Origin: a virus
Lineage: Duplodnaviria; Heunggongvirae; Uroviricota; Caudoviricetes
Length of the DNA stretch: 64,000 bases
Strand: one strand, 5' to 3'
IMG/VR virus record: IMGVR_UViG_3300016476_000987
Shown: positions 7,819 to 44,400 of the stretch, piece after piece
Layout: each line of letters begins with the position of its first letter
Numbering within the stretch: the first letter of the stretch is position 1
Made by a program: the position numbers and the translations under genes
Notes under the pieces: model-generated
Databases searched by the model: none
What the model saw: only the letters and a program-made list of their open reading frames with translations
What the model was told of the DNA's origin: nothing

Positions 7819-7848
7819 TAACTCCAATTAATAAAAATACACTCTATT

Positions 7849-9947: not shown

Positions 9948-9981
9948 ATATATTTATATAAAATTTTTAAATTAAAACTTA

Positions 9982-10641: not shown

Positions 10642-10713
10642 AAAAATGATGATAATCTTTTTAAGTAAACCCATCTATTGACTAGCATTTATTACATTTA
10701 AAAGTAATTATTT

Positions 10714-11295
10714 ATGAATTACATAGGAGACATTTCAAAAAATGATTTTATAGTGCTGAAGCAAGCAGCGGAAATGTATAAAAACATATTAGAATTTGGA
10801 GTAGGCGCTAGCACTCAAGTTATATTGAATTATACTTCCGGTAATTTTTTATCAATTGATACATCATCAGAATGGGTAGATCTTACAAAAAAAAATTTGA
10901 GCTATCTTAATATAAACAAGCCTATAAACATGATGATGTACCATGAGTTTAAACCTTCATTAGACGATAGTTACGATTTTGTATTTAATGATGGAGTCGA
11001 TGAACTTAGATTAGAGTTTGGACTATCTATATTTCCATACATAAAAATTGGAGGCATAATAGCTTATCATGATACAAGGAGAAATAAAGATATACTAAAC
11101 GTAACAAGTCTTATAAATAAATACCATAATGAAATTGATCTTATTGAAGTAAATAAATATGGTTCTAATATTACAGTAATTAGAAAAAAGAAAGAGGAGC
11201 CTTACGAAGATTGGAACATTGCTGAAGGTAAGACTTATTTGAAAAAAGGAGGGTATATATTCAAAGACACTATTCCACCTCCTCATATGGCATAA
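10714..11295 (+). CDS. class I SAM-dependent methyltransferase
   Basis: Motif I ILEFGVGASTQ (hh(D/E)hGxGxG) and acidic post-I motif VFNDGVDE. Confidence 0.6.
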   Translation: MNYIGDISKNDFIVLKQAAEMYKNILEFGVGASTQVILNYTSGNFLSIDTSSEWVDLTKKNLSYLNINKPINMMMYHEFKPSLDDSYDFVFNDGVDELRLEFGLSIFPYIKIGGIIAYHDTRRNKDILNVTSLINKYHNEIDLIEVNKYGSNITVIRKKKEEPYEDWNIAEGKTYLKKGGYIFKDTIPPPHMA

Positions 11296-11333
11296 ATTGC
11301 TAAATATTCCTTACATTTGAAAAAACAATAATT

Positions 11334-11522
11334 ATGGATTGGTTACATTTTTGCTTATTTGCCCTATTGCTAGTTTCTGTAGGAGTGTTATTTTATTTCA
11401 ATAGCAGGCAAAATAAAATAAATACTGCTCTTTCTACATTTACTACCATCGCTAGTTTAGCTTTTGCAGAGGTGAAAAAAGAAATAGACGAACTTAAAGA
11501 AAAACTTGAAAAAAAACAGTAA
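11334..11522 (+). CDS. small membrane protein
   Basis: N-terminal hydrophobic helix LHFCLFALLLVSVGVLFYF. Confidence 0.4.
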   Translation: MDWLHFCLFALLLVSVGVLFYFNSRQNKINTALSTFTTIASLAFAEVKKEIDELKEKLEKKQ

Positions 11523-11524
11523 CT

Positions 11525-11767
11525 ATGCAAGCAGGATCTTTAGTTTTATGCATTCAGGGATATCCTGGCCTTTTAGAAGAAGGGCAAATTTATACCGTTG
11601 ATTCTTTGGAAGAGCATGAGAGAACTAAAACTATAGGAGTATGGTTGTATGAAGTATCTCCTCCCCCTCCGCATCTAGGATTTTCCGTTCATCGATTTAT
11701 TGAAATTCAAGAACCTTTAGACGTTAACTCCTTAGTAAAAGATGTTTTATATGAAAGTAAAAATTAA
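11525..11767 (+). CDS. hypothetical protein
   Basis: ORF only. Confidence 0.4.
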   Translation: MQAGSLVLCIQGYPGLLEEGQIYTVDSLEEHERTKTIGVWLYEVSPPPPHLGFSVHRFIEIQEPLDVNSLVKDVLYESKN

Positions 11768-12176
11768 AAAACTACATCCTAACGCAGTAATTCCTAAATA
11801 CGCAAAGGAAGGAGATGCAGGACTAGACTTAGTAGCTACTGAGGTTTATGAAGACTCTGAGGATCGAATTACTTATGGAACTGGCGTAGCTATAGAAATC
11901 CCCGAAGCATATTTAGGTCTCCTCATGCCTAGATCTTCTGTGAGAAACTATGATCTTATTCTATCAAACTCTGTTGGACTTTCGGATAGCGGATATCGGG
12001 GGGAGATTATGGCTACTTTTAAAAAGACAAAAGGATTCTACAGCAAAGCGTATTTTCCAGGAGAGCGTATTGTTCAATTAGTTATACTACCTTACCCCTA
12101 TATTTCTTTTGAGGAAGTGGAAGAACTGTCTGATTCTGAGAGGGGAGCCACAGGGTTTGGTAGCTCAGGTAAATAA
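11742..12176 (+). CDS. dut: dUTP diphosphatase (dUTPase); true start may be the second ATG at 11751 (MKVKIKKL)
   Basis: Motifs GDAGLDL, PRSSVRNY...GLSDSGYRGEI, ERGATGFGSSG. Confidence 0.9.
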   Translation: MFYMKVKIKKLHPNAVIPKYAKEGDAGLDLVATEVYEDSEDRITYGTGVAIEIPEAYLGLLMPRSSVRNYDLILSNSVGLSDSGYRGEIMATFKKTKGFYSKAYFPGERIVQLVILPYPYISFEEVEELSDSERGATGFGSSGK

Positions 12177-12181
12177 TAGTT

Positions 12182-16075: not shown

Positions 16076-16285
16076 ATGGACAAACATTTTGCTGTATTAG
16101 TAGATGTTCCTACAAAAGGAGAAATGATGTTGTTTCTTGGTTACTATGAAGATAATAAAGAGCAAATGGATGAAAGATATGAAGAGGTATCTATGGATCT
16201 TCCATTAACTCCTATCCTTGATAAATTGAAATCACACAAGTATAAATTGTTTAAACAAAAAGAAATAAATAATGATCAAGACTGA
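16076..16285 (+). CDS. hypothetical small acidic protein between groES and groEL
   Basis: ORF only. Confidence 0.4.
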   Translation: MDKHFAVLVDVPTKGEMMLFLGYYEDNKEQMDERYEEVSMDLPLTPILDKLKSHKYKLFKQKEINNDQD

Positions 16286-17945
16286 ATTTGGAAATGAGCT
16301 AAAAAGTAAACTGCTCAGCGGTATTTGTAAATTGAATGATAGCGTATCCTCTACTCTCGGTCCTGGAGGTAGAAACGTTATTATCCGGGATGAGGATGGC
16401 AACATTAAAGTAACGAAAGACGGAGTTACTGTAGCCAGGGCTTTCTCTAAGCTTGAGGATGATATTGAAGACATCGGTGCTCAGATGATCCGTAAAGTGT
16501 CTGAGAAGTCTGCTGATAAAGCAGGAGACGGTACTACAACCTCTACTCTCCTGGCTACTGTAATGGTAGAAGAAGGAATCAAAGTTATCACTCAGGGATG
16601 TAATGCCGTAGAAGTTAAAAAGGGTATTGACATTGGAGTAAAAAAAGTAGTAAGCCTTCTTAAAGAACTCTCAAGAGAAATCTCTTCTGATGATCAAATC
16701 AAACAAGTAGCTACTATCTCTGCCAATAACGATGTTGAAGTAGGAAATCTTATTGCAACAGCGATTGATAAAGTAGGTACTGACGGTGTTGTAGCTATTG
16801 AAGAATCTAAGACTGGTGAGACTTCTCTGGAAGTTGTTGAGGGTATGATGTTTGATCGTGGGTACAAATCCCCTTATTTTGTCACCAATCAGAATACTAT
16901 GCAAGCCGTTCTGGAAAAGCCACTTGTATTTCTGTATGATGGCAAAATAATGAACTCTAGCCAAGCAGTACCAGTTCTACAAGCAGCTGCTATGGAAAAT
17001 AGGCCCCTTCTTATTGTTGCGGAAGAAATCGAAGGAGAAGCCCTGGCTCTTCTTGTAGTAAATAAAGCTAATCAAACGATTAAGGTCTGTGCAGTAAAAG
17101 CTCCAGACTTTGGAGATCGTAGGACTGCTATTCTGGAGGACATCGCTATTCTAACCGGTGGAACTGTCCTGTCTCCTAACAAAGGTCACAAGCTTGATAA
17201 AATGAAGCCGACCGAGTTCAAAGCACATTTCGGAGAAGCAAGGGTAGTTAATGTTACTTCTAAAGACACTACAATCGTAGATGGAAAAGGATCAGCAGAG
17301 GCTATTGAGCAAAGACTGAACGAGATTAAGACTCAAATTGATATTGCTAAGTCTAATTTTGAGATTGAGAAACTTCAAGAAAGGTTGTCTAAACTTACTG
17401 GAGGAGTAGCTATCGTTAACGTAGGAGGTCTTAGTGAAGTGGAAATGAAGGAAAAGAAAGATCGTGTAGAAGATGCTCTTTACGCTACCAAAGCTGCGTT
17501 GGATCAAGGTATTGTCCCAGGAGGAGGAATGGCCCTTGTTATGTGCTCTTATAGGCTTCTTAAAGAAGCTATTACTGAGAACTCAGATCAACAAATTGGA
17601 GTTAGTATTGTATATAAATCATTAGTAGCTCCATTCAGAAAGATTATGCAAAATGCAGGGATTGAAGATTATCATTCTATGCTTAGTGAAATTCGTGATC
17701 TTAGAGTCGAGCATGAAAAGAAGCATCCCGAAGATCCTATGTTTCTCTGGTATGGATACAATGTGAAACTTGGAAATTTTGTTAACATGTATAAGGAAGG
17801 GATTATAGATCCGACTAAAGTAACTAGGACCGCCATAGAGAACGCAGCTAGCGTAGCCGGTACAATCCTTACTACAGAATCAGTAATCTTCTCAGTAGGA
17901 GAAAAAAAGAAAGAAGAAATTGATTACAGCCAATTCATGCAATAA
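16272..17945 (+). CDS. groEL: chaperonin GroEL (Cpn60)
   Basis: [41 protein letters not shown]; 557 aa. Confidence 0.95.
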
Positions 17946-28745: not shown

Positions 28746-29534
28746 ATGGAAACTTTAATGCAATTATTACTAGAAGCGCCAATTACTCCTGATCAGGTAA
28801 ATAAATTCTTATTGCCTAGAGATAACCAGGTTAGTATCTTCTATGATAAGAAATGGATTTCTGTAGAACCGGTAAGGGTACAGGAAATAGACGGGGAAGA
28901 TTACTTAATTGCATTTGAAGTATCAGACCCTCAAGCTAAGACTCCAGTTAGATACGAACTTAAAAAAATAACCAATTGGAACGTACTTAGTAAAAAATCT
29001 GCTGATAGAGCTAAGAAAGAAAAACAGAAAGGAGTAGTTAAAATAAAATCTGAGAAAAATAAAATAGTAGATTCTATAGTAAATAAAAGATATGTGAAGT
29101 TCTATTACAAGGGAGATAAGGAAAATAAACCGGGATATAGAACAAGCGTTCAGCCAGTATGTTACGGGGTGACCAATGGTAAAAAGTATCTTAGGGCATG
29201 GCAAGACGAAGGAGAGACTTATAGAGGTAAACTACCTAAAGACAACAAAGAGTATAGGCCTATGCCTGGCTGGAGGTTTTTTAGAGAAGATAGAATAAGC
29301 ATGAACACTTATCAAGAAACAGGAAAAAATTTTACTGTTCCTCCTAGAGCAGACTATAATCCTACCGGCGATAAACATATAAATGATGTTATAGCTATTG
29401 CTAAGTTTGATACTGGTAACAAACCTCCTCCTGTTCCGGAGGAACCAAAGGCACCTGCTCCAACAAAAGGAAAGAAGAAGTTACAAGAAAATAAAATAAT
29501 AAGTGCTATCTTAGAGGCTGTGAGAATTTTATAA
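28746..29534 (+). CDS. hypothetical protein, Lys/Pro-rich C-terminus
   Basis: ORF only. Confidence 0.45.
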   Translation: METLMQLLLEAPITPDQVNKFLLPRDNQVSIFYDKKWISVEPVRVQEIDGEDYLIAFEVSDPQAKTPVRYELKKITNWNVLSKKSADRAKKEKQKGVVKIKSEKNKIVDSIVNKRYVKFYYKGDKENKPGYRTSVQPVCYGVTNGKKYLRAWQDEGETYRGKLPKDNKEYRPMPGWRFFREDRISMNTYQETGKNFTVPPRADYNPTGDKHINDVIAIAKFDTGNKPPPVPEEPKAPAPTKGKKKLQENKIISAILEAVRIL

Positions 29535-29545: not shown

Positions 29546-29896
29546 ATGAGAAGGAAGAACCCAAAAAGAACTGTCCCAACTTTAAACTATTATGTAAATT
29601 CTTTTAGTGATTACCAGACCATAAGTACGATGCAAGACACTAGGAAGTTAGTATTTAACAATCTTATAGAAGCTATAGAAGATAGCATGAGAAGCAAAAA
29701 AAACGAAGCTTCTATTTTTATGTTGGATTATGATCATTATGTAGCATTAAATAAAAGAAGTTGGAAAAAAAGCTTAAATACTGCTATTGAGTTTTTTTCT
29801 TCTGAGGGAGTAGAAGAGTATGAGATTTGTAAAAAGTGCGTAGATTTGATTAATAAAATAGACTCTGAAGAAAAAACAAAGGTTGAAGATGAGTAA
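29546..29896 (+). CDS. hypothetical protein
   Basis: ORF only. Confidence 0.4.
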   Translation: MRRKNPKRTVPTLNYYVNSFSDYQTISTMQDTRKLVFNNLIEAIEDSMRSKKNEASIFMLDYDHYVALNKRSWKKSLNTAIEFFSSEGVEEYEICKKCVDLINKIDSEEKTKVEDE

Positions 29897-30314
29897 AGAT
29901 TTTAATCCAGGTAATTCGCATCAAGAAAATGTTAAGATTGCTATAGATAATATTATAGGAGAGACTACCAATCTTAAAAAGAAAAAAAAGAATGATGCAG
30001 ATCAAAAAAGAATTCTATTCAAAAAAATTATAGAAGGGATTATCTCTGCGGAAGAGCGATCAATAATGTTAGATGAAGCTTTTTCTATTGATTTGAATAA
30101 ACACAATAGTTTATTTTTTGAAGTTATAGATAATTTTTTAAAGTATAATTTTACCAAAGAACAAATAAGACTAATAGATTTCTATTTGTACGATAGGTAT
30201 AGCGCAGATGGATCTGTCTTAGATCTTATGGATGATAATAAGAACGTAGTTAAATTAGATACAGCAGACGATTTGTGGTACTTAATAAAAGCTATGGAGA
30301 CAAATGCGAAGTAA
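29883..30314 (+). CDS. hypothetical protein
   Basis: ORF only. Confidence 0.4.
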   Translation: MKMSKDFNPGNSHQENVKIAIDNIIGETTNLKKKKKNDADQKRILFKKIIEGIISAEERSIMLDEAFSIDLNKHNSLFFEVIDNFLKYNFTKEQIRLIDFYLYDRYSADGSVLDLMDDNKNVVKLDTADDLWYLIKAMETNAK

Positions 30315-30999
30315 GGGATTTAGAAATGCGATTTCGCTGACTATAGATCGGTCGGATGTGGAGAGAGCTATAAGGAATAGCAAGTCTAATAGAGGCGCTG
30401 CTAGGTACTTAGGAGTAAGCGTAAAGACGTATAAGAAAGTAGCATCCCGGTATAGAACAGATGACGGAAAGACACTGTACGATATTCATTGCAACAAAGC
30501 AGCTGCCGGTATCCCAAAGTATTCTAATAGAAAATCTAGAGGCGATGCCTTAATGGATATTCTAGAGGGGAGAGCAAGCATGAAGTTTGTTTCTGTTAAG
30601 GAGATAAAGGCCAGGCTTATTGCTGAGGGATACATTAAAGAAGAGTGCTGCCGTTGTAAATACAACGAAAGAAGGTCCATAGATGAGAAAGTTCCTCTGT
30701 TGATAAATTATGTAGATGGAAACAAGAGGAACTGGCAATTAGAGAACTTACAATTACTATGTTATAATTGTTATTTTTTACACATAGGGGATGTGTTTCA
30801 GCAAAAACAAATAGATGCATTAGAAGATTTTCAGGTCCTACAAAGCAAACCGGTAAGCTTCGATCTTCCTAAAATGCAAGAAGAGAAGATCAAAGAGACT
30901 CTTAACCTGGACAATAGACACATATACAGTATAGACGAAGAAGAGGAGAGACCGGAGGATTACGGTAATGATTTAATAGCTGGCTATAAAAGAAAGTAG
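30304..30999 (+). CDS. HNH homing endonuclease with N-terminal helix-turn-helix
   Basis: CCRCKYNERRSIDEKVPLLINYVDGNKRNWQLENLQLLCYNCY (HNH: C..C...H/D...N...N...C..C); N-terminal ARYLGVSVKTYKKVA HTH. Confidence 0.8.
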   Translation: MRSKGFRNAISLTIDRSDVERAIRNSKSNRGAARYLGVSVKTYKKVASRYRTDDGKTLYDIHCNKAAAGIPKYSNRKSRGDALMDILEGRASMKFVSVKEIKARLIAEGYIKEECCRCKYNERRSIDEKVPLLINYVDGNKRNWQLENLQLLCYNCYFLHIGDVFQQKQIDALEDFQVLQSKPVSFDLPKMQEEKIKETLNLDNRHIYSIDEEEERPEDYGNDLIAGYKRK

Positions 31000-31317
31000 A
31001 TGGCAGTTAAGCTGTATTACATATATGTGGATAGCCTAGATGTAGACTATAAAGAAGTGCTAAAAGAGCACGAACTGCCTTTATCTTTACAAATAATAGA
31101 CGCTATATGTACTGCCATAGAGGAAGGCAAATCTTTTGTAGAGATAGCTAAAATAATAACTCCTACCCACAACATAACTTTACAGTCCACACAAAAGAAT
31201 TTTGTAGAGACCTTGGAGCTAAACATGCAGACTCTTATAGAATATGAAGAGTATCTCCCTTGTGCCAGGGCTAAAAAGGCAATCGACATCCTATCAAAAA
31301 AATTTTTGGAGAATTAA
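31000..31317 (+). CDS. hypothetical protein
   Basis: ORF only. Confidence 0.4.
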   Translation: MAVKLYYIYVDSLDVDYKEVLKEHELPLSLQIIDAICTAIEEGKSFVEIAKIITPTHNITLQSTQKNFVETLELNMQTLIEYEEYLPCARAKKAIDILSKKFLEN

Positions 31318-31342
31318 GAAACTTGTTTACCTTTGACCTGAA

Positions 31343-31422
31343 GCCCTCTTGCTGAAATCGGTAGACAGGCCAGACTTAGGATCTGGTGCTTAGGCGTGTC
31401 AGTTCGAGTCTGACAGAGGGCA
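31343..31422 (+). tRNA. tRNA-Leu (anticodon TAG), type II with 11-nt variable region
   Basis: Hand fold: acceptor GCCCTCT/AGAGGGC, D stem CTG/CAG with GG loop, anticodon stem CCAGA/TCTGG loop CTTAGGA, T arm GTCAG-TTCGAGT-CTGAC, discriminator A. Confidence 0.8.
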
Positions 31423-31610
31423 CTTTCCCTATAAATAAATATTCGTAGTATGATAACTAAATTAGTAACAGTATCTTCAGTTGTTATTGGAATTTTTTTT
31501 ATAATTGGAAGTACTTTTAATCACATTAATCCTTGGTTGGCCGTAGGATTATTCGTAGGTGTGTTGTATTTTGCAGCTCATAAAATAGACAAGATAATAA
31601 AAAAAGAAAA

Positions 31611-32420
31611 ATGAAAAAAACAATCAGTCTTATCGCAGTCGTAGTTTTGTTCGTAGTATCCTCTTGCGAACGAGTAGCTCCTAATTATTACGGGGTATTG
31701 ATGGAAAACTTTGGTAAGTCCGGTAAATCTGACTACTCTCGTCAGCAGGGCCGAGTAAACACAATGTCTCCAGGTACGGAACTGTTCCAGGTACCGGCTT
31801 GGGAACAAAGGGCAAATTTCACTGATGATAATGGGAATGAAAGAGTATTAAAATTAAAAGCTTCTGATAACACAGAATTTTCTGCAAAGCCCATCTATTC
31901 CTATAAAGCTATCGAAAACAAAGTAGTAGACTTGGTATTCCAAAACTCACGCCTTGGCTCAGGAGACGGCTTTATGAGAGCCTTAGAAGACAACGTACTT
32001 GAGCCTCGAATGTACGACATTATTAAAGAAGAGAGCCGTAGATACACTACAGATACGCTTATGGCACAAGGTGGGGGCCTTTTGTTTGAGCAACGAGTTC
32101 AAGAGGTAATTCGTAAAGCCTTTGAAGATGCTGGTCTCCAGCTGGTCTCCTTCAGTTCTAACCTTGACTTTAGTGAGAAGGTGAAGCAAAAGATTGATAC
32201 TCGTAATGAGGTGAATACTAATATCTCTGTACTTGATCAGCAGATTGCAGAGCAGCGTAAGCGTAATGAACTTGCTGAGCTCCAAACCCAAGAAAACATT
32301 ATCAAGAGTCGAGGTATTACTGAAGAGCTGCTTCAGCAACAAGCTATTCAGAAGTGGAATGGCGTTCTTCCTTCTACCTGGTCTGGATCTAATCTGCCTT
32401 TTGTAAAAGCGATTAAGTAA
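31611..32420 (+). CDS. lipoprotein with coiled-coil region (possibly SPFH/band-7-like)
   Basis: Signal peptide plus lipobox MKKTISLIAVVVLFVVSSC; long Glu/Gln-rich coiled coil; lies between tRNA genes. Confidence 0.5.
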   Translation: MKKTISLIAVVVLFVVSSCERVAPNYYGVLMENFGKSGKSDYSRQQGRVNTMSPGTELFQVPAWEQRANFTDDNGNERVLKLKASDNTEFSAKPIYSYKAIENKVVDLVFQNSRLGSGDGFMRALEDNVLEPRMYDIIKEESRRYTTDTLMAQGGGLLFEQRVQEVIRKAFEDAGLQLVSFSSNLDFSEKVKQKIDTRNEVNTNISVLDQQIAEQRKRNELAELQTQENIIKSRGITEELLQQQAIQKWNGVLPSTWSGSNLPFVKAIK

Positions 32421-32563
32421 AGTAAAAAGTACCTCGAACGCTTCCCGTAAGATCAGCGCACCAGCATGAGGTCTTGTTTCCACGTAAGTGAATAGCCCAA
32501 GGCATAAGCTATGGTGGAGTACCAAACCTCTCTTTGACTGGCCATCAAATGATGTTTGGATAT

Positions 32564-32651
32564 AGTCAGGCGACCTTGTGGTAAAGGTTTTAGGAGGGCG
32601 CATCTCTGTTATGCATAAATCCTCCCTTGGGTTCGAGTCCCTTCCTGACTA
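32564..32651 (+). tRNA. atypical tRNA-like element (unit A, 88 nt): canonical acceptor/T arm, anticodon stem GGAGG/CCTCC enclosing a 23-nt loop
   Basis: Acceptor AGTCAGG/CCTGACT, D arm ACCT-TGTGGTAA-AGGT, T loop TTCGAGT; inner hairpin GCAT-CTCTGTT-ATGC. Confidence 0.4.
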
Positions 32652-32772
32652 CTGATTCAGTTTGCCCGTGGTAACGACTTGTTATAAGAAATTATAATTG
32701 GTTTCTGTGATCAAAATCCAAGCAATGTCTCACTGTTGTTTGGGCTAAATGTGAGGAAAAAACGGGATGTTT

Positions 32773-32875
32773 AGTCAGGTGGCGGAGTGGGCTAACGCTA
32801 ACTAGGAAGAGTCTGAGGGGTGGTAGCCTAGTACCAATACCCTGATGACCACAGGTTCGAATCCTGTCCTGACTA
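32773..32875 (+). tRNA. atypical tRNA-like element (unit B, 103 nt): tRNA-Leu-like D arm GCGG-AGTGGGCTA-ACGC, stem CTAGG/CCTAG with 20-nt loop
   Basis: Same acceptor AGTCAGG/CCTGACT; T arm ACAGG-TTCGAAT-CCTGT. Confidence 0.4.
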
Positions 32876-33005
32876 CAATTGGTTGCAGGTTTTGGAAACA
32901 CTGCGTAATGTCAAGTATAAATCCAGCGGCTACACTTGGTCCAGTAGCAGAGGGTCTTGCCCCAATTATTTTTAATTCAGTCCTGGCTACTTAACAAGTA
33001 ATTAA

Positions 33006-33431
33006 ATGGAGATAACAAAATATAATATTTGTGAAACTATTGAGAACTATCTTAAAGAATTAAAAGTAAGGTATTCTATTCTTGATCCAGATTCTAAAGG
33101 TTGCGTCTATGAGCTTTTCAGTACATCAATGTCAGGACATATTCAAGTTGAATATAATCTTGATGATGAGAATGATAGTTATTTTGTTTTGCAGTTTTAT
33201 ACAGCAGTAGATAACCTCGGTTATTCAATATACCATCAGGAATGGGATAATGAATGTGAAAATTGTGATTCTGTAGAAGGTGAAATAGATAATTTATTAG
33301 AGTCTGTTAAAAAAATAAATCAAGGAATTTCAAAAATATCTACAAAGATTGAACAAATAAAAGATCTATGTGGTGAATATGGGTTAGACTTTGATAGTCT
33401 TATAACATTAAATTATGATTTTGATTCTTAA
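33006..33431 (+). CDS. hypothetical acidic protein inside tRNA island
   Basis: ORF only. Confidence 0.45.
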   Translation: MEITKYNICETIENYLKELKVRYSILDPDSKGCVYELFSTSMSGHIQVEYNLDDENDSYFVLQFYTAVDNLGYSIYHQEWDNECENCDSVEGEIDNLLESVKKINQGISKISTKIEQIKDLCGEYGLDFDSLITLNYDFDS

Positions 33432-33454
33432 TAAATCTACTAAAACAAACAGTT

Positions 33455-33727
33455 ATGAAATCAAATAAAGAATACAGATTTGCCGACAATCCAAAAGAAA
33501 AAGAGTTTCACGATAAATTCAAACAAATGTTTGAAATATCAAACACTACAAGAAATTCATTATCGGCAATTATCTTTGGTTGGAAAGATGCTTCACAAAA
33601 CTATCCAAATGTATATTTAACTGATAAAGAAGAAGATATTTGCCTAAATCTTATACAATGGCTTGGCAGTCCTGTCGGTCAATCATTTCTTAAAGAATGT
33701 GGTTTTGATAACAATGAAAACAAATAG
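33455..33727 (+). CDS. hypothetical protein
   Basis: ORF only. Confidence 0.4.
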   Translation: MKSNKEYRFADNPKEKEFHDKFKQMFEISNTTRNSLSAIIFGWKDASQNYPNVYLTDKEEDICLNLIQWLGSPVGQSFLKECGFDNNENK

Positions 33728-33729
33728 TT

Positions 33730-33936
33730 ATGGCAAACAAAGTATGGCACAAAGTAGTAATTGCAACAGAGGAACAGGATGTTACAGTTCGTCCTACTGA
33801 TGAAAACGATGGTATTATTTTAGAAACGAAAGAGCCAGATGGCACTGGAAGTCCCAGACTATATCTTAATAGAGATGAAATGGAGTTTCTTATCACTAAG
33901 ATGAGAGAGATGATGGATTATGTAACTTCTAAATAA
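33730..33936 (+). CDS. hypothetical protein
   Basis: ORF only. Confidence 0.4.
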   Translation: MANKVWHKVVIATEEQDVTVRPTDENDGIILETKEPDGTGSPRLYLNRDEMEFLITKMREMMDYVTSK

Positions 33937-33943
33937 AAAAACA

Positions 33944-34261
33944 ATGTTGTATCCAAGAGCTTATCATAAAGACGGCAGACATAGAAGACCAATTCCTCAA
34001 TGGGCTAAAATTGTAATAGGAATTATTCTAGTTTCTATATGGGTTTTTATTGGTATTGAGTCTATAGTAAGTCGTACTAAAAAAGTAAAAGTATATGGAA
34101 CGGTAGTAAGTCACCATATAACTAATGACAGGTCTGGAAATCCTACTTACTACACTATTATCAAAACAGATGATGGACAAATAATGACTAAGAAGGGTTT
34201 AAATTACTTTATAATTAAAGAGGATGATAGGGTAGTGATAGACGATTATGTATTTGAGTAA
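33944..34261 (+). CDS. hypothetical membrane protein (one TM helix)
   Basis: IVIGIILVSIWVFIGI hydrophobic segment. Confidence 0.45.
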   Translation: MLYPRAYHKDGRHRRPIPQWAKIVIGIILVSIWVFIGIESIVSRTKKVKVYGTVVSHHITNDRSGNPTYYTIIKTDDGQIMTKKGLNYFIIKEDDRVVIDDYVFE

Positions 34262-34327
34262 AAAAATTTTGTTCGTATTCTTAAGTGCCCTATCTTTGCC
34301 CTGGATCTTTGAAATAAGGGATTAGTT

Positions 34328-34413
34328 GCCCCGGTGATGGAACTGGTAGACATGAAGGACTTAAAATCCTTTTCGCCGAAAAGCGAGTACGGGTTCGACT
34401 CCCGTCTGGGGCA
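34328..34413 (+). tRNA. tRNA-Leu (anticodon TAA), type II
   Basis: Acceptor GCCCCGG/CTGGGGC, anticodon stem AAGGA/TCCTT loop CTTAAAA, variable hairpin TCGCCGAAAAGCGAG, T arm ACGGG-TTCGACT-CCCGT. Confidence 0.85.
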
Positions 34414-34419
34414 CAAAAT

Positions 34420-34529
34420 AGTCAGGTGGCGAAATTGGTTAGACGCTAAAAGCGGGTTCGTAACCCTTGACCGTCTGGTATCAGATGCTTAGAGTAACAC
34501 TCGTACAAGTTCGAATCTTGTCCTGACTG
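34420..34529 (+). tRNA. atypical tRNA-like element (unit C, 110 nt): Leu-like D arm GCGA-AATTGGTTAG-ACGC, expanded central region with small hairpins
   Basis: Acceptor AGTCAGG/CCTGACT, T arm ACAAG-TTCGAAT-CTTGT, discriminator G. Confidence 0.4.
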
Positions 34530-34558
34530 CAATTATTAAACAATAAAACAAATAAACA

Positions 34559-34810
34559 ATGAGACCAGACGAAATGAGAAACGAAATTGTAAGAGAAAAG
34601 GTAGAGTATAAACCCGATCCTAGTGACCTAAGAAAAAGACATCCAATTATTATTGAATTTCTTGATAGCGGGTGTATTGTTAGAGTAGGATGTAAATCAA
34701 TAGCATTTAATGATTATAGAAATGGAATGGAAGAAATAAATGCTTATGTAAAAGATCCTATTACTGCATATCAAAAGTGGGGTAAAGAATTAGGAATAGA
34801 ATTGTACTGA
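34559..34810 (+). CDS. hypothetical protein
   Basis: ORF only. Confidence 0.45.
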   Translation: MRPDEMRNEIVREKVEYKPDPSDLRKRHPIIIEFLDSGCIVRVGCKSIAFNDYRNGMEEINAYVKDPITAYQKWGKELGIELY

Positions 34811-34819
34811 TACAAGGTT

Positions 34820-34906
34820 AGTCAGGTGGCTGTAGGTATCAGCTTTAGGAGGTTGCATCTCTGTTATGTGTAATGCCTTCCACGGGTTCGAATCCTGTTC
34901 TGACTA
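34820..34906 (+). tRNA. atypical tRNA-like element (unit D, 87 nt), homologous to unit A (stem GGAGG/CCTTC, 23-nt loop containing GCATCTCTGTTATG)
   Basis: Acceptor AGTCAGG/TCTGACT (one GU), D arm GCTG-TAGGTAT-CAGC, T arm ACGGG-TTCGAAT-CCTGT. Confidence 0.4.
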
Positions 34907-35030
34907 CAAAAAAATAAAAGTAATGCAAAAAGAAGAAATCAAACTATGGATTGATAGATGGTCTAAATTAAAACCATCTCCGAAAAAAGATATGTTAATT
35001 AAGATTTGGTCTAGGTTTTTATAACAAATA

Positions 35031-35152
35031 GTCAGGTGGCGGAATGGTAGACGCAGAGGGGTCAACATCCTCGAAATAGGGAGTATAAAAAAGTTGAAAT
35101 ATAGGTACCGCACACTCCAGACATCGTACAAGTTCGAATCTTGTCCTGACTA
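35031..35152 (+). tRNA. atypical tRNA-Leu(CAA)-like element (unit E, 122 nt): normal anticodon arm GAGGG-GTCAACA-TCCTC but ~54-nt variable region
   Basis: Acceptor AGTCAGG/CCTGACT, D arm GCGG-AATGGTAG-ACGC identical to bacterial tRNA-Leu, T arm ACAAG-TTCGAAT-CTTGT. Confidence 0.45.
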
Positions 35153-35272
35153 CGAGGGGAAAGTAACCTAAAGAGAGCCTCAAATGGTGAATGTCTGTAG
35201 CTTATCTAAGCATAGCAGATTGTGACCGCCGGTAATGATCTCAGCAGGTGACACACGGGAGAGACCGTACAT

Positions 35273-35376
35273 AGTCAGGTGGCGATAATGGATATACGCA
35301 CCCTTAGTTCAGGGAGTATGGAAATATGAGGTAATGAATACCATACAATGTGCAAGTTCGAATCTTGCCCTGACCG
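35273..35376 (+). tRNA. atypical tRNA-like element (unit F, 104 nt); T stem GCAAG/CTTGC covaries relative to other units
   Basis: Acceptor AGTCAGG/CCTGACC, D arm GCGA-TAATGGATAT-ACGC, T loop TTCGAAT. Confidence 0.35.
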
Positions 35377-35507
35377 CGCAGAAATCCAACACAACGACGT
35401 GGTAGCCATTTTCGGATGGAGAGTAACCGTGAAGTAATAGTAGCGGAGCATACCCAAAAAAATGTTATCGGGACGTGCAATGGTTGACAGCCGGAAAGAC
35501 GGCAAAT

Positions 35508-35592
35508 GGTCAAATAGTGTATGGCGCACAGAGGAAGTAGTCGCAGCAATGTAGACCCGAATCGAGGGTGGGTTCGATTCCCAGTTTGACCG
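35508..35592 (+). tRNA. possible type II tRNA-like gene (85 nt) with no clean anticodon arm
   Basis: Acceptor GGTCAAA/TTTGACC perfectly paired, T arm TGGG-TTCGATT-CCCA, D stem GTG/CAC with GG loop; no 5-bp anticodon stem found. Confidence 0.3.
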
Positions 35593-35699
35593 CATATTCC
35601 CCTGCATAGTGCGGAATGGTGTGGAGTAATCAGGTAGGCGCACCCCAAAACCAGTAAGGTTATGAGAGGCAAAACAATTGTCTGACACTGGTAAAATCG

Positions 35700-35740
35700 T
35701 GACAGCGTGGAAAGACACCCTGACAGCGTGGAAAAGACAC
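35700..35740 (+). repeat. tandem direct repeat TGACAGCGTGGAAAGACAC x2 immediately upstream of tRNA-Met
   Basis: Two copies, 19/20 nt identical, read directly. Confidence 0.6.
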
Positions 35741-35746
35741 GCAATT

Positions 35747-35820
35747 GGACCCTTAGCTCAGTTGGTTAGAGCAAATGACTCATAATCATTAGGTCCACGG
35801 TTCAAGCCCGTGAGGGTCCA
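35747..35820 (+). tRNA. tRNA-Met (anticodon CAT; elongator-type or Ile-lysidine type cannot be distinguished)
   Basis: GGACCCT...AGGGTCC acceptor, D arm GCTC-AGTTGGTTA-GAGC, anticodon stem AATGA/TCATT loop CTCATAA, T arm CACGG-TTCAAGC-CCGTG. Confidence 0.9.
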
Positions 35821-35827
35821 CAATACT

Positions 35828-35901
35828 GGTCTGGTAGCTCAGTTGGATAGAGCGGCAGCCTTCTAAGCTGTAGGTCATTGGTTCGAATCCAATCCGGATC
35901 A
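35828..35901 (+). tRNA. tRNA-Arg (anticodon TCT)
   Basis: Acceptor GGTCTGG/CCGGATC, anticodon loop CTTCTAA, T arm ATTGG-TTCGAAT-CCAAT. Confidence 0.9.
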
Positions 35902-35944
35902 CTAATAACTCTTTATGGAAGACAACAAAGGTGAGTATTATTAT

Positions 35945-35990
35945 ATAGCAGTTAGAGTCTTAACTATGACTTTAGCTGCTATTCTTTTTA
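35945..35990 (+). terminator. hairpin ATAGCAG...CTGCTAT followed by TCTTTTTAT; likely terminator of the tRNA cluster
   Basis: 7-bp perfect stem plus partial extension, T-run downstream. Confidence 0.45.
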
Positions 35991-36113
35991 TAGCACTAGT
36001 GGAAGGTTGCTAATTTATTTATTAAAAAATATTTTGATACATAAACAATACTTTGTAAATTCGACAAAATGTATAACAAAAACAAAAGGTTTAATTTTTA
36101 AATTGATTTTAGA

Positions 36114-41475: not shown

Positions 41476-42651
41476 ATGAACCAAATCGATATTGATTATC
41501 AAAACTTAGTAAGAGACATTCTTGAGAACGGAAGTCGTAAAAATGATCGTACCAAAACGGGAACCATAAGTGTCTTTGGTAGGACTATTAGACATAGTAT
41601 GAAGGATGGATTTCCACTTCTCACTACAAAGAAGATGGCGTTCAAAACAATGACAACAGAGTTATTGTGGTTTTTGCGTGGTGATACCAATATCAAATAC
41701 CTTGTTGACAATGGGTGTCACATTTGGGATGGTGATGCATGGAAACATTTTTCTACTGTTAGGAAGAGTATGTTAATGTTAAAACCACCTGCATCAGAAG
41801 ATAAATTACGTGAGTATATTGAATGGTATGAGCAAATAACAACACAAGAAGAGTTTATCAACAAAATCAAAACCGATGATGAGTTTGCAAAGAAGTGGGG
41901 AGACCTCGGACCTGTGTATGGAAAGCAGTGGAGGAGTTGGGAAAAATATGGGGTCAGAGGAGTTCAAAATGGAGCAGCCGATATGGGATGGGAAGTTGAA
42001 TCTCCATATATTGACCAAATCGCAAACGTAATCAATCTACTCAAGACAGACCCTGACAGTCGAAGAATGATTGTGAGTGCCTGGAACACAGCGGATTTGT
42101 CAGCAATGGTCCTGCCACCATGCCACATGATGTTTCAGTTTTATACGAGAGAGTTGAGTGAGAGCGAGATATGGGATTATATTCACAAAAATAAAATTGA
42201 AATTAAACATCAACACGCTGTACTATATGGTCACGAAGTTGGAAGTGAATTAAGAAAATCATTTATACCAACACTAAAAGAGAATTATAACATACCAACC
42301 AGAGCAATCTCACTACGATGGGACCAACGCAGCGTTGACGTAGGTCTCGGTTTGCCGTTCAACATAGCAAGTTACGCTCTACTATTGGAGATAGTAGCTA
42401 AAGCAGTTAACATGATTCCTGAAGAACTTATTGGTGATTTAGGTGATTGTCACATCTATAATAATCATATTGATGGCTTGAAAGAACAATTGACTAGAGT
42501 ACCGTATGAGCTACCAACAGTAAAATTACCAAAAACTGATGCGTTTTGGAAAGTATTTGATGTTTCTTTGTTTGGTCACCTCAACTCGACTGATTTCATT
42601 TTAGAAAACTATCAATCACATCCGGCAATTAAACTTCCACTTTCAAATTAA
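41476..42651 (+). CDS. thyA: thymidylate synthase (ThyA family) with two large insertions (391 aa)
   Basis: RTKTGTISVFG, ELLWFLRGDTNI, DLGPVYGKQWRSW, DPDSRRMIVSAWN, LPPCHMMFQFY (catalytic Cys), GLGLPFNIASYALL (Asn retained, so dUMP-specific). Confidence 0.9.
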   Translation: MNQIDIDYQNLVRDILENGSRKNDRTKTGTISVFGRTIRHSMKDGFPLLTTKKMAFKTMTTELLWFLRGDTNIKYLVDNGCHIWDGDAWKHFSTVRKSMLMLKPPASEDKLREYIEWYEQITTQEEFINKIKTDDEFAKKWGDLGPVYGKQWRSWEKYGVRGVQNGAADMGWEVESPYIDQIANVINLLKTDPDSRRMIVSAWNTADLSAMVLPPCHMMFQFYTRELSESEIWDYIHKNKIEIKHQHAVLYGHEVGSELRKSFIPTLKENYNIPTRAISLRWDQRSVDVGLGLPFNIASYALLLEIVAKAVNMIPEELIGDLGDCHIYNNHIDGLKEQLTRVPYELPTVKLPKTDAFWKVFDVSLFGHLNSTDFILENYQSHPAIKLPLSN

Positions 42652-43671: not shown

Positions 43672-44400
43672 ATGAACCCTCCCCCTAAGTATCCATTACT
43701 ATCAGATGATACTATCAATATAGTGATATGTGAAGATCATATTCTATACAGGCAAGGAATAAAATACACTCTGGATCAAAAGAATAATATACAAATTATC
43801 GGAGAAGCCGATAACGGAGTGTCTTTATTAAATCTACTAAAGCATGTGACTCCTAACATTATTATCCTGGATATTAACATGCCGGTAATGGATGGGGTAG
43901 CTGTGCTACCGGAAATAAAAAGACTGTACCCGGCCATAAAAGTACTGGTCCTTACTATGAATAATACTCCGGAAATGATAGAGATCATGATGTCTAAAGG
44001 AGCTGACGGGTATCTCACAAAGAATGATGATCCGGAAGTTATCTATACGGCCATCTTAGATTGCCATAAAGAAGGAAAATACATAGATAAGAGAACCCAG
44101 GACGTACTTATAAACACTGTTAGGAGAGTAGGAGGAGATCCTATTATAGATATCCCTAATAAAACTACTCAGCCTGCTAGATTTGACACCCCTATACCAG
44201 ACAAAGAACCTTGGTATAAAATGCCAACCAGAGCTACTCTAGTAGGCCTAGGAATAGCTTTTGCTGTGTTTATAGGTCTATACGCATATGAGAAGCTTAG
44301 GGTCAGTAATAAGCCTGTAAAGACGGTACAAGCTCCTCCTAGTTATCCACAAGATTATAACAATAATCGATATGGACTAGATACCATATTCTCTAAATAA
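43672..44400 (+). CDS. response-regulator receiver (REC) domain protein with C-terminal TM helix, no DNA-binding output domain
   Basis: VICEDH (acidic pair), ILDINMPVMDG (phospho-acceptor Asp), VLVLTM (Thr), GADGYLTK (Lys); C-terminal TLVGLGIAFAVFIGLYAY. Confidence 0.75.
   Translation: MNPPPKYPLLSDDTINIVICEDHILYRQGIKYTLDQKNNIQIIGEADNGVSLLNLLKHVTPNIIILDINMPVMDGVAVLPEIKRLYPAIKVLVLTMNNTPEMIEIMMSKGADGYLTKNDDPEVIYTAILDCHKEGKYIDKRTQDVLINTVRRVGGDPIIDIPNKTTQPARFDTPIPDKEPWYKMPTRATLVGLGIAFAVFIGLYAYEKLRVSNKPVKTVQAPPSYPQDYNNNRYGLDTIFSK

Follow-up and report, generated by a model that had tools for sequence, protein, structure and literature searches.

Oversized tRNA-like elements in a phage tRNA cluster belong to a large, apparently undescribed family of phage RNAs with a tRNA-Leu scaffold

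The sequence examined was IMG/VR record IMGVR_UViG_3300016476_000987 (Caudoviricetes), a stretch of 64,000 nt that is called the window in the following. The locus of interest (32,564-35,376) carries oversized tRNA-like elements (TLEs). In total, seven TLEs (units A-G) were found in the window, all on the + strand and interspersed with four ordinary tRNAs. A first-pass annotation of this DNA had listed units A to F. These are present on the + strand at the sites given there, apart from unit E, the start of which had been set one base off (35031 instead of 35030). The seventh element, unit G, had been overlooked. The features of the cluster are:

31343..31423, + strand, canonical tRNA-Leu(TAG), acceptor GCCCUCU, unlike the TLE acceptor
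32428..32563, + strand, sp1, structured RNA, 3′ end directly abutting unit A
32564..32651, + strand, TLE unit A, acceptor AGUCAGG/CCUGACU, A73
32652..32772, + strand, sp2, spacer with edges exactly at the ends of units A and B
32773..32875, + strand, TLE unit B, full scaffold, Levitt pair G15-C48, A73
32876..32990, + strand, sp3, spacer 3′ of unit B, 94.5% identical to the close relative L356
34328..34414, + strand, canonical tRNA-Leu(TAA), acceptor GCCCCGG
34420..34529, + strand, TLE unit C, consensus scaffold except G73
34820..34906, + strand, TLE unit D, paralogue of unit A, G7.U66 wobble, A73
35030..35152, + strand, TLE unit E, consensus scaffold, full LeuRS identity set
35153..35272, + strand, sp4, non-coding spacer with edges exactly at the ends of units E and F
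35273..35376, + strand, TLE unit F, A1.C72 mismatch, G73, T stem GCAAG/CUUGC
35377..35507, + strand, sp5, conserved non-coding spacer with edges exactly at the ends of units F and G
35508..35592, + strand, TLE unit G, acceptor GGUCAAA/UUUGACC, G73, T arm GUGGG-UUCGAUU-CCCAG
35593..35746, + strand, sp6, spacer from unit G to tRNA-Met
35747-35821, + strand, canonical tRNA-Met(CAT) at the end of the cluster
35828-35902, + strand, canonical tRNA-Arg(TCT), the last of the cluster

Past tRNA-Arg, a terminator-like hairpin was located at 35945-35982.

Every unit folds in the order acceptor, D arm, insert and T arm. The scaffold reads AGUCAGG, a tRNA-Leu D arm, the insert, the T arm and CCUGACU, followed by A-C. 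From a bacterial tRNA-Leu, each unit retains the acceptor stem, both the D and the T arm and the tertiary core, and it also shows the 5′ and 3′ flank signature of true tRNA genes. This upper half of the tRNA is kept almost letter for letter, whereas the codon-reading part, i.e., the anticodon arm together with the variable arm, is replaced by a structured insert that differs from copy to copy. In the window, the pattern AGTCAGG...GTTCGARTC....YCTGACY has four matches, whereas 100 dinucleotide shuffles gave none. Neither ARAGORN in default mode nor Rfam at the gathering threshold called any of the six elements A-F, the top Rfam tRNA score being 26.1 bits (unit D) against a threshold of 29. The folding z-scores of the whole window units are modest (−0.1 to −2.1).

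The stem AGTCAGG/CCTGACT, described before as shared by all six, holds as the common scaffold, with deviating 3′ strands in unit D (UCUGACU) and unit F (CCUGACC). The discriminator is A (units A, B, D and E) or G (units C and F), as had been stated. Canonical D and T arms had been ascribed to all copies, from which unit A departs: its D arm variant carries C8 instead of U8 and lacks A14, and its T stem has 3 bp flanked by two U.U. This unusual form is also kept in a relative.

The insert of unit A is an extended arm (GGAGGG / GCAU-CUCUGUU-AUGC / UCCUCC). What had been read as a 23-nt loop in units A and D resolves into an internal loop and a further hairpin of 4 bp (GCAU-CUCUGUU-AUGY). Both inserts have the core GCAUCUCUGUUAUG in common; compared with unit A, unit D differs in the D arm, where three compensatory pairs are seen. 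The insert of unit B is a candidate H-type pseudoknot (P1 32801-32806/32827-32832, P2 32817-32821/32839-32843) with two compensatory pairs and a change from G.U to G-C. Elements with 93-94% identity to unit B are present in L013, L263, L264 and L266, where the flanks are unrelated. Unit C begins 5 nt past tRNA-Leu(TAA), and its insert, for which a homologue search gave no match, folds into three short hairpins, including a T-loop-like one (GGGUUCGUAACCC).

For unit E, a normal Leu-CAA anticodon arm had been proposed. A hairpin resembling an anticodon arm is indeed present (loop GUCAACA), followed by a second arm of ~54 nt; it carries C37, and the closest homologue, L090 4977-5099 (88% identical, flanks not alignable), has C33 and has lost G18G19. 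The insert of unit F consists of a small hairpin and a 6-bp arm, and GGGAGUAU..GAAAUAU.AGGUA is common to units E and F. The insert of unit G contains AGUAGUCGCAGCAAUGUAGACCCGA and is also found in AGUCAGG-type scaffolds of L038, L115 and L258-L262 (90-96% identity over 26-36 nt).

Several spacers are conserved as well. The sp1 RNA comprises three hairpins with an invariant GAAUAGCCCAAGGCAUAAG and is 94.4% identical to L356, compared to 86% for the adjacent ORF. Homologues were found in six more TLE-bearing loci, with compensatory changes in 15 of 34 pairs, and in several loci the RNA stops at the 5′ end of a TLE or tRNA. The sp2 spacer is identical in L353 (120/120). The counterpart of sp3 in L356 has the 3′ end AAUCCUGUCCUGAUUGC, and sp3 may be a degenerate TLE. 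For sp4, the homologue search remained without a match. The sp5 spacer is ~81% identical to L090 4393-4533 and to L267, where the counterparts run from the 3′ end of one TLE to the 5′ end of the next. Within sp6, a direct repeat UGACAGCGUGGAAA(A)GACAC is located at 35700-35718 and 35721-35740.

As had been suggested, related phages were searched for the scaffold. It was found in at least 205 IMG/VR viral contigs, frequently in several copies per contig; a scan with the 3′ half gave at least 120 contigs and an independent scan with the 5′ half at least 85 additional ones. The scaffold was found neither in cultured phages nor in Rfam. Among the listed matches of the 5′-half scan, 77 of 89 elements are completed by the T arm and the 3′ strand as expected (CCUGACU in 60 of the 77, then AC in 64), and ~12 of the 89 show small 3′-end indels. 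The family members are 53-190 nt long, many of them just 53-70 nt. The inserts (25-130 nt) are hyperdiverse, with 23 small classes and more than 130 singletons among the matches listed, and no motif common to them was detected in a family-wide comparison. In all 83 cases with a canonical tRNA in the locus, the TLE lies on the strand of this tRNA, at a median distance of 260 nt. The scaffold is almost unchanged over hundreds of contigs, and the acceptor-stem sequence is nearly invariant, which exceeds what generic tRNA processing requires and counts against the explanation favored below. The six elements first noted are real and part of a large, apparently undescribed family of phage RNAs. The duplicated family proposed earlier is supported as a family; instead of a local duplication, the elements represent members of a very large family of modular build that extends over hundreds of phage contigs.

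For the analysis of conservation, the ORF adjacent to the units was used as neutral yardstick; compared to L356, 74 of 270 third codon positions differ (~27%). Unit A and its orthologue in L356 are 97.7% identical, with two changes in 88 nt that together form a single compensatory pair (A10-U25 to G10-C25). In an alignment of 50 family members, double changes were detected in 8 of 15 scaffold pairs, and none of 500 shuffles reached the observed score. The T-stem covariation noted in the first pass was reproduced, with double changes in three of the five T-stem pairs (0 of 500 shuffles). The inserts are more stably folded than shuffled sequences (mean z −1.06, 160 elements) and contain invariant loop sequences of 9-14 nt. 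Covariation of the window's own inserts is based on 2-5 distinct sequences only; other insert classes covary too, and in one hairpin, three adjacent compensatory pairs lie below an invariant loop of 9 nt. Strong purifying selection acts on TLEs.

Of the 185 distinct elements among the matches listed, only ~5 have a 7-nt loop with U33 and R37 on a stem of 5 bp. ARAGORN in default mode called 33 of the 185, with scattered identities. Judged by their sequences, TLEs cannot decode. The earlier suggestion of a family of tRNA-derived structured ncRNAs is supported by conservation far above the neutral rate, covarying helices and the lack of anticodon loops.

The tRNA features retained were analyzed in the 161 elements that possess a D arm. 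Of these, 154 have U8, 142 A14, 151 GG and 143 A73. Positions 15-48 are A-U in 129 and G-C in 9 elements, C48 accompanying G15 in 9 of 10 cases, and U8, A14, the 15-48 pair, GG and A73 occur all together in 107. The base preceding the T stem is a U in 134 of 160 elements. At position −1, a U was found in 151 of 185 TLEs and, for the tRNAs located in the same loci, in 185 of 268 (background T 32%). For C74, the corresponding numbers are 182 of 185 (TLEs) and 236 of 268 (tRNAs), and the CCA is unencoded.

The LeuRS of E. coli requires A73, A15-U48, G18G19, A20a and D/T tertiary pairs, and charging persists for a tRNA-Leu that has neither anticodon arm nor variable arm (review PMC9976931). The conserved scaffold (U8, A14, A15-U48, G18G19, A73) corresponds to this minimal LeuRS substrate, so, more speculatively, most TLEs may also be leucylated and bound by EF-Tu. 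Leucylation cannot be general, since units C, F and G carry G73, a known LeuRS antideterminant in tRNA-Ser (PMC9976931), unit F has the A1.C72 mismatch, unit A lacks U8 and A14 and has the 3-bp T stem, and the L090 homologue of unit E lacks G18G19.

Taken together, TLEs are probably non-decoding chimeric small RNAs derived from tRNA-Leu, a natural 'tRNA scaffold' family. They would be co-transcribed with the tRNAs of the cluster and excised at the 5′ end by RNase P, whereas the 3′ end would be formed by the pathway for CCA-less tRNAs (RNase Z or exonucleases). The CCA-adding enzyme would complete them, and folding into the L-shape would follow. The tRNA part is most likely a handle for processing (maturation), stability and perhaps charging, and the insert would act as effector by binding to a partner from the host or the phage. 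The conserved spacer RNAs between the units would likewise be freed in this processing. The search for a partner gave no candidate: among the 138 loci, no protein family was found in more than 15, and none of the co-occurring families is an RNA enzyme.

It is rather unlikely that the units serve as processing punctuation only, i.e., as RNase P/RNase Z cut sites on a polycistronic transcript with the inserts as filler. They would then free neighboring tRNAs, small-ORF mRNAs and conserved spacer RNAs, consistent with the exact coincidence of the edges of sp2, sp4, sp5 and sp6 with unit ends, with the sp5 arrangement preserved in L090 and with the covarying sp1 RNA ending at TLE or tRNA 5′ ends. 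The hyperdiversity of the inserts and their lack of a common motif would also fit. However, the inserts are conserved and covary, and filler would not keep invariant loops of 9-14 nt. A minihelix would be a sufficient substrate of RNase P, but the units have retained the D arm, A15-U48 and A73 as well, and many units adjoin ORFs without any spacer RNA.

We consider it unlikely that TLEs are abundant anticodon-less tRNA mimics which act as decoys or sponges and titrate host factors that recognize the acceptor end, the elbow or the variable region. Candidate targets would be tRNA-targeting defense nucleases or modifiers, LeuRS and EF-Tu, leaving decoding undisturbed. Such a role would be in line with the conserved acceptor end, elbow and LeuRS identity set, with the location in phage tRNA clusters, which are known counter-defense loci (in T6, for example, Septu cleaves tRNA-Tyr at the variable loop; PMC13096335), and with the high diversity and fast turnover expected in an arms race. 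A pure decoy could do without a structured, covarying insert and without several different inserts in one genome, however, and no defense-related or anti-defense protein context was found at the loci. Titration overlaps with the chimeric small RNA explanation, as one possible effector mode.

TLEs are swapped between phages as cassettes, with junctions in the conserved scaffold ends. The block of sp2 and unit B is missing in L356, the junction lying exactly after CCUGACUAC; in L353, a different TLE replaces unit B after the identical sp2, and the insert of unit G occurs in a distinct scaffold in L038. These exact junctions, units that are conserved while their flanks are not, and a SegE-like GIY-YIG homing endonuclease in the fetched flanks of 11 of 138 loci could point to elements acting at the DNA level. 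The ends would be recombination sites or ends of small mobile elements via which cassettes of inserts and small ORFs are shuffled, and the RNA fold a relic of tRNA origin. This is very unlikely, since compensatory changes preserve the D, T, acceptor and insert RNA helices, the strand-specific flank signals U−1, A73 and C74 are conserved, and every unit lies on the tRNA strand. Recombination at repeated ends is the expected by-product of any repeat.

It is highly improbable that TLEs are interrupted tRNA-Leu genes with inserts removed like introns to give functional tRNAs, one of the explanations offered before. The proposed ARAGORN intron search fitted units B, C and E (the latter with its CAA hairpin) and 123 of the 185 family members, but the fits are forced: in the window, the identities assigned are Tyr, Leu and Arg, over the whole family they number 22 (Leu in only 23 elements), and the fitted intron positions are non-canonical. 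In addition, many members (53-70 nt) are too short for any anticodon arm, the unit E hairpin has C37 and its homologue C33, and models of group I/II introns and ribozymes gave no match to TLEs. Decaying tRNA-Leu pseudogenes from duplications in the tRNA cluster, likewise proposed earlier, are hardly credible: copies with defects do exist (unit F, the T stem of unit A, the 3′-end indels, the degenerate appearance of sp3), but decay is excluded by the near-identity of unit A, which differs from its orthologue by one compensatory pair where third codon positions differ by ~27%, its odd T stem is itself conserved, and the scaffold is nearly invariant with covarying inserts.

Among known systems, the RNAs RNAC and RNAD (species 1 and 2) of phage T4 are small stable non-tRNA RNAs of still unknown function within a tRNA cluster (PMC3014915; PMC9697503), a location similar to that of TLEs. 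They are two fixed genes in T4-like phages and are not known to share sequence or scaffold with TLEs, to carry variable inserts or to have expanded into a family.

The Ro60-associated bacterial Y RNA YrlA (PMC4201824; RF02553) is, like TLEs, non-decoding with a D arm, a T arm and an acceptor-like stem, and it is a mimic of the tRNA elbow. Unlike TLEs, it is circularly permuted, has its ends in the Ro-binding stem and a loop-capped acceptor stem, and its gene adjoins rsr. A single YrlA match was obtained, in L090 (35 bits, threshold 69); it corresponds to the boundary between two neighboring tRNAs. Neither Ro60 nor RtcB was found in the window.

In MALAT1 mascRNA, gammaherpesvirus tRNA-miRNA units and mitochondrial tRNA punctuation, RNase P and RNase Z cut at tRNA shapes. 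Neighboring RNAs are thereby cut out, which resembles the spacers of the window with edges set exactly by the units. These modules are eukaryotic or organellar, single and without a variable insert, whereas the TLE itself carries a conserved payload. C4, an antisense repressor RNA of ~77 nt in phages P1 and P7, arises from a tRNA-like precursor through cleavage by RNase P, similar to what is proposed for TLEs. By loop-loop antisense pairing, C4 binds a target in the same operon, whereas no antisense target of the inserts was found within the window. C4 is not known to have a tRNA-Leu scaffold.

The tmRNA (SsrA) also consists of a tRNA upper half (acceptor and T arm, with a reduced D region) that ends in the acceptor stem, with a large structured insert at the position of the anticodon arm. 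It is a substrate of RNase P, is charged by a synthetase without regard to the anticodon, and binds EF-Tu (PMC3985003). However, tmRNA is one conserved gene of ~360 nt with pseudoknots, a tag reading frame, the G3.U70 alanine identity and SmpB as partner, whereas TLEs (53-190 nt) have Leu-type identity features, a full D arm and hypervariable inserts and occur in many copies per genome. TLEs were matched neither by the tmRNA mode of ARAGORN nor by the Rfam tmRNA model.

An engineered 'tRNA scaffold' for recombinant RNA was reportedly developed by Ponchon and Dardel. In this scaffold and in aptamer-tagged tRNAs (PMC7590224; PMC5397188), a foreign structured RNA takes the place of the anticodon or variable region or extends it, an architecture shared with TLEs. 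The cargo is processed and stabilized by the cell as a tRNA, which is what is proposed here for TLEs. The engineered scaffolds are laboratory constructs, whereas TLEs are natural, occur in hundreds of phage contigs and show selection on their inserts.

The first-pass annotation had described six oversized tRNA-like elements (TLEs) on the + strand, each opening with AGTCAGG and closed by its complement. Their presence was confirmed, with small corrections to the description. Unit F ends with CCTGACC followed by G-C; in the other five of these six units, the 3′ acceptor strand is followed by A or G and then by C. The combined scaffold pattern had four matches in the window and none in 100 shuffles. 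When T arms closed by a 7-bp acceptor stem were searched for generically, units B, C, D and E were recovered together with the canonical tRNAs, and a seventh element was added, unit G, with the acceptor GGUCAAA/UUUGACC. The array consists of the following elements:

32564-32651, + strand: unit A, TLE
32773-32875, + strand: unit B, TLE
34420-34529, + strand: unit C, TLE
34820-34906, + strand: unit D, TLE
35030-35152, + strand: unit E, TLE
35273-35376, + strand: unit F, TLE
35508-35592, + strand: unit G, TLE

Every unit folds into an acceptor stem, a D arm and a T arm, with the insert placed between these two arms. The 7-bp acceptor stem, the D arm and a TPsiC-type T loop are present in all units; in unit A the T stem and the D loop are weakened. 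With default settings, ARAGORN identified only four ordinary tRNAs in the window (Leu-TAG, Leu-TAA, Met and Arg). Three of these were reported by Rfam at the gathering threshold, and Leu-TAG was added at E values up to 10. The best score of a unit on the Rfam tRNA model (RF00005) was 26.1 bits (unit D; threshold 29), and some family members elsewhere exceed 29 bits. In the region 31200-36100, no intron, ribozyme, tmRNA or other Rfam family was matched at E values up to 10.

Exact matches to the 3′ half of the scaffold (GGTTCGAATC....YCTGACT) were found in at least 120 contigs of IMG/VR. Multiple copies per contig are common; among the matches listed, seven were found in L013 and four or five each in L019, L025, L039, L052, L101 and L105 (L numbers denote other TLE-bearing viral or metagenome contigs or loci). 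From the matches listed, 185 distinct elements of 53-190 nt were extracted, which form the basis of all counts out of 185. An independent IMG/VR scan with the 5′ half only yielded at least 85 further contigs, and among the matches listed 77 of 89 elements ended with the T arm and 3′ strand expected of the scaffold. The two halves thus go together, and the family is not an artefact of either scan. The scaffold covariance model R1 could not bridge inserts of 30-100 nt and aligned only the 3′ halves with spurious 5′ partners; its matches fell only inside the cluster, and membership was not defined by it.

The TLE contigs span 4-288 kb among the matches listed. In the genome collection, the signature was found on 17 MAG contigs, nine of which were binned to Bacteroidota (Chitinophagia, Sediminibacterium, Flavobacterium and Saprospiraceae). 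No scaffold match was obtained among the cultured phages of INPHARED. The cultured phage nearest to the window is Flavobacterium phage immuto, whose DNA polymerase PolA is 53% identical and syntenic; no tRNA or TLE was found in the 50 kb examined of this phage.

The 5′ consensus of the scaffold is AGUCAGG-UG-GCGG-AAU(U)GGUAG-ACGC, followed by the insert and the 3′ consensus U-ACAGG-UUCGAAU-CCUGU-CCUGACU-A-C. The consensus D arm is presumably identical to that of E. coli tRNA-Leu. In an alignment of 50 sequences, in which D-stem pairs were pre-filtered and T-stem and acceptor pairs were not, changes on both sides were found in 8 of 15 helix pairs and 99.9% of the cells pair. None of 500 shuffles of this alignment reached the observed covariation values. 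Other acceptor helices occur in the same arrays (e.g., AGUCUUG/CAGGACU, AGCAAGG/CCUUGCU and AGUCGAG/CUCGGCU). Since related elements carry such alternatives, the helix is kept, not the sequence alone. A second large insertion in the D loop, between GGCGGAA and GGUAGACGC, was observed in L061, L029, L079 and L090 (4213-4392), so the scaffold tolerates expansion at more than one site. A possibly separate tRNA-like set of 155-175 nt was found in L015 (588-742), L045 (5303-5469), L060 (12257-12431) and L111 (836-991), with acceptors of the UGUCAGG/CCUGACA type, the T stem GGAGG or GAAGG and a G-C trailer.

U occupies position −1 in 151 of 185 listed TLEs; among the canonical tRNAs of these loci it does so in 185 of 268, compared with a background T content of 32%. 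The discriminator is followed by C (C74) in 182 of 185 listed TLEs and 236 of 268 tRNAs, the next base being A or U; CCA is not encoded. Where a locus contains a canonical tRNA, the TLEs all lie on the same strand as the tRNA, at a median distance of 260 nt. The TLEs share the features of a processing substrate, namely the coaxial helix of acceptor and T arm with the elbow, U(−1) and a CCA-less trailer like that of the neighbouring tRNAs. From these flank signals, common to TLEs and tRNAs, we infer that the TLEs would be cleaved by RNase P, undergo CCA-less 3′ processing and receive CCA. The near-invariant sequence of the acceptor stem is not demanded by generic tRNA processing.

Among the listed elements with a D arm (n = 161), U8 was found in 154, A14 in 142, the D-loop GG in 151 and A73 in 143. 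Positions 15 and 48 are A-U in 129 and G-C in 9 of them, and U8, A14, the 15-48 pair, GG and A73 occur all together in 107. The T stem is preceded by U in 134 of 160 listed elements. For E. coli leucyl-tRNA synthetase (LeuRS), A73, the A15-U48 Levitt pair, G18G19, A20a and D/T tertiary pairs are required, and the anticodon and the variable arm are dispensable (PMC9976931). Because the conserved family features match these requirements, the conserved part corresponds to a minimal LeuRS substrate. In the window, the set A73, A15-U48 (or R15-Y48), G18G19, A14 and U54-A58 with intact pairing of the D and T loops is complete in E and, with G15-C48, in B. It is partial in A and D, which have A73 and a variant D loop, and incomplete in C, F and G, which have G73. 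Judged from these positions, leucylation of consensus members is plausible, in the window for B and E, and C, F and G are unlikely to be leucylated given their G73.

A decoding function of the units was rejected, as they have no proper anticodon arm, score below the Rfam gathering threshold and are missed by ARAGORN with default settings. An arm with a 5-bp stem, a 7-nt loop, U33 and a purine at position 37 is present in about 5 of 185 listed elements. It was not found in A, B, C, D, F and G, and the anticodon-like stem-loop of unit E has C37. ARAGORN default calls were obtained for 33 of 185 listed elements, with eleven amino-acid identities and malformed loops included. The possibility raised by the first-pass annotation that the elements are interrupted tRNAs was not supported. 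With introns allowed (ARAGORN -i), B, C and E are fitted as Tyr, Leu and Arg, respectively, with introns starting at positions 34-35. The same setting fits 123 of 185 listed elements to 22 different identities, Leu accounting for only 23. No group I or group II intron core or self-cleaving ribozyme was detected in 58 kb of related loci (Rfam, E values up to 0.5).

The inserts of the listed elements were grouped into 23 small similarity classes and more than 130 singletons. No k-mer is common to them (the most frequent 6-mer was found in just 13 of 160 listed elements), and no Rfam family matches them. The inserts are more stably folded than shuffles (mean z-score −1.06); one arm is predicted in 57% and two arms in 37%. 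In one class, three consecutive compensatory pairs lie below the invariant loop GCUGGGUAA, and a four-member class has two compensatory pairs. The class of unit B shows a compensatory pair in both stems of a proposed H-type pseudoknot, plus one change from G.U to G-C. The insert core GCAUCUCUGUUAUG is invariant between units A and D, whose D stems are three compensatory pairs apart. With respect to antisense pairing, the longest complementary stretch that each insert has in the 64-kb window was no better than in shuffles, and the matches of A and D were each other. An insert class without a normal D arm (consensus GYGUAAUGAGG ... GAAUCC ... GGUUGC) was observed in at least ten contigs (L076, L027, L049, L117, L112, L101, L026, L002, L046 and L075). 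The same three motifs are present, in a different order, in the window spacer sp3.

An IMG/VR scan with the 14-mer GCATCTCTGTTATG gave chance matches only, and a longer pattern of the A/D insert was successful in the metagenome collection, where it identified contig L356. This contig is 88-93% identical to the window across most of 29605-33110, with gaps present.

Identity of window features to contig L356
Adjacent 269-aa ORF: 86%; of the 82 mismatches, 74 fall on third codon positions, about 27% of which differ
32564-32651, + strand, unit A: 97.7%; two changes, which together make up a single compensatory pair
32428-32563, spacer sp1, non-coding: 94.4%
32876-32990, spacer sp3, non-coding: 94.5%

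The first-pass annotation had also considered decaying tRNA pseudogenes. The identities of unit A and of the spacers, set against the third-position divergence of the ORF, exclude decay. In L356, sp3 ends with AAUCCUGUCCUGAUUGC and may therefore be a degenerate TLE.

In L356, sp3 directly follows unit A; the block of sp2 (window 32652-32772) and unit B is missing, with the junction right after CCUGACUAC, and a small ORF and a different TLE are located further on. In L353, sp2 is identical in 120 of 120 positions, and the TLE that follows it in place of unit B differs from unit B in both D loop and insert. Elements with 93-94% identity to unit B were found in four contigs, and their 1.5-kb flanks share nothing. 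Units D and E are likewise islands of similarity, and the insert of unit G was found elsewhere within the AGUCAGG scaffold. Recombination in the invariant scaffold ends is the simplest account of these cassette swaps. A SegE-like GIY-YIG/NUMOD3 homing endonuclease gene was observed within a few kb of the TLE arrays in 11 of 138 loci (e.g., L055 13013-13684) and may be relevant to cassette turnover. It recalls segB of the T4 tRNA cluster. In L271, L283, L288 and L295, found with the 5′ half, the element is interrupted within the 3′ acceptor strand (CCUGUCCU|...), beyond which the sequence is unrelated and hairpin-rich; these breaks could be recombination junctions or truncated copies.

The spacers of the array were also analyzed. 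Spacer sp1, about 135 nt long, is a structured RNA that recurs at several loci; it has three hairpins and contains the invariant sequence GAAUAGCCCAAGGCAUAAG. Homologues are present in L356, L283, L286, L109, L035, L126 and L320, compensatory changes were found in 15 of 34 predicted pairs across 7 sequences, and Rfam gave no match. Its end usually coincides exactly with the 5′ terminus of a TLE or tRNA. Spacer sp5 (35377-35507) is non-coding and about 81% conserved in L090 (4393-4533) and L267. In both phages, it extends from the 3′ end of a TLE to the 5′ end of the TLE that follows, so that tRNA-type processing would free a separate RNA of about 130 nt. By thermodynamic stability alone, sp1 to sp6 were indistinguishable from shuffles. 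A direct repeat, UGACAGCGUGGAAA(A)GACAC, occurs twice at 35700-35740 just upstream of tRNA-Met, and each copy can form a small hairpin. Promoter-like sites occurred at chance level, using a scanning tool that does not cover promoters of Bacteroidota. In L090 (IMGVR_UViG_3300008448_000024), which carries a unit E homologue, a tmRNA (68.5 bits) and about 30 tRNAs adjoin the TLEs (5724-6218 and 6700-12900). Between tRNAs within the TLE-bearing array of L019 (4124-4186), the orphan Rfam motif freshwater-1 scores 70.1 bits, just short of its threshold of 72.

All-against-all clustering of ORFs from 138 loci revealed no family in more than 15 loci and no co-occurring RNA enzyme. The top co-occurring families were DUF932, small unknown proteins, the SegE-like GIY-YIG endonuclease and terminase. 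Among 30 window ORFs scanned, no RNA ligase, Ro60, RtcB, CCA enzyme or synthetase was found. The thymidylate synthase ORF (41476-42651, 391 aa) spans the 335-position PHROG profile and has about 110 extra residues, which suggests an inserted domain or an intein-like segment. The window further encodes GroEL (16272-17945), a WYL-domain protein (28746-29534) and a response-regulator receiver-domain protein (43672-44400). A block of glycosyltransferase and sugar-nucleotide genes at 19.5-28 kb is syntenic with Flavobacterium phage immuto.

In the model that the data favour, the tRNA-Leu-derived chassis would recruit the host tRNA maturation machinery and confer stability, and the insert would act as the effector. 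A speculative extension, which we regard as rather improbable, is that Bacteroidota phages keep a natural 'display library' with hundreds of swapped structured RNA effector modules on this chassis. The chassis would then be processed, CCA-tagged by the host and possibly leucylated, and the modules would include pseudoknots, T-loop hairpins and extended arms. The effectors would inhibit or decoy host proteins of defence or RNA metabolism, like RNA antitoxins or anti-CRISPR mimics, and the cassettes would be swapped through recombination in the invariant chassis ends. Such a library would be an RNA counterpart of anti-defence protein islands. If made and matured as in the favoured model, the TLEs themselves would provide a natural panel of folded, nuclease-resistant RNA modules whose targets could reveal new host-phage conflicts, and would raise the questions of whether LeuRS charges anticodon-less RNAs in vivo and of what the inserts bind. 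As non-coding viral RNAs, they would form a new class that is abundant in phages of Bacteroidota, from freshwater and elsewhere, and that standard tRNA finders miss or mislabel with arbitrary anticodons. Their cassette-like turnover offers a model for RNA-gene exchange between phages.

An identity as YrlA/Ro60 RNA was rejected, as the TLE topology is not permuted and no TROVE or RtcB protein was found among the 30 window ORFs scanned; the single weak YrlA match, in L090, is an artefact that spans the junction of two adjacent tRNAs. The same applies to tmRNA, for which ARAGORN -m and Rfam gave no match in the window; positions 3-70 are U-A in the TLEs, in contrast to the alanine identity G3.U70 of tmRNA. 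A survey of viral structured RNAs names unspecified tRNA-like candidates (PMC10690425), and in full-text literature searches and Rfam 15 no description of the family was found. Since they lack the defining features of decoding tRNAs, intron-containing tRNAs, tmRNA and YrlA, and no published description was found, the TLEs are counted among the non-decoding tRNA mimics. There is a sizeable chance that their modular, hypervariable design is a new principle.

In their location within phage tRNA clusters, the TLEs resemble RNAC and RNAD of T4, small stable RNAs other than tRNAs whose roles are still unknown (PMC3014915, PMC9697503). In their architecture, the TLEs resemble the tRNA-like domain of tmRNA and engineered tRNA scaffolds. 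If they are made and matured as proposed, phages would use the upper half of tRNA as a general chassis that expresses and stabilises many different small structured RNAs. To our knowledge, this principle has so far been seen only in 'tRNA scaffold' constructs made in the laboratory and, as one fixed form, in tmRNA.
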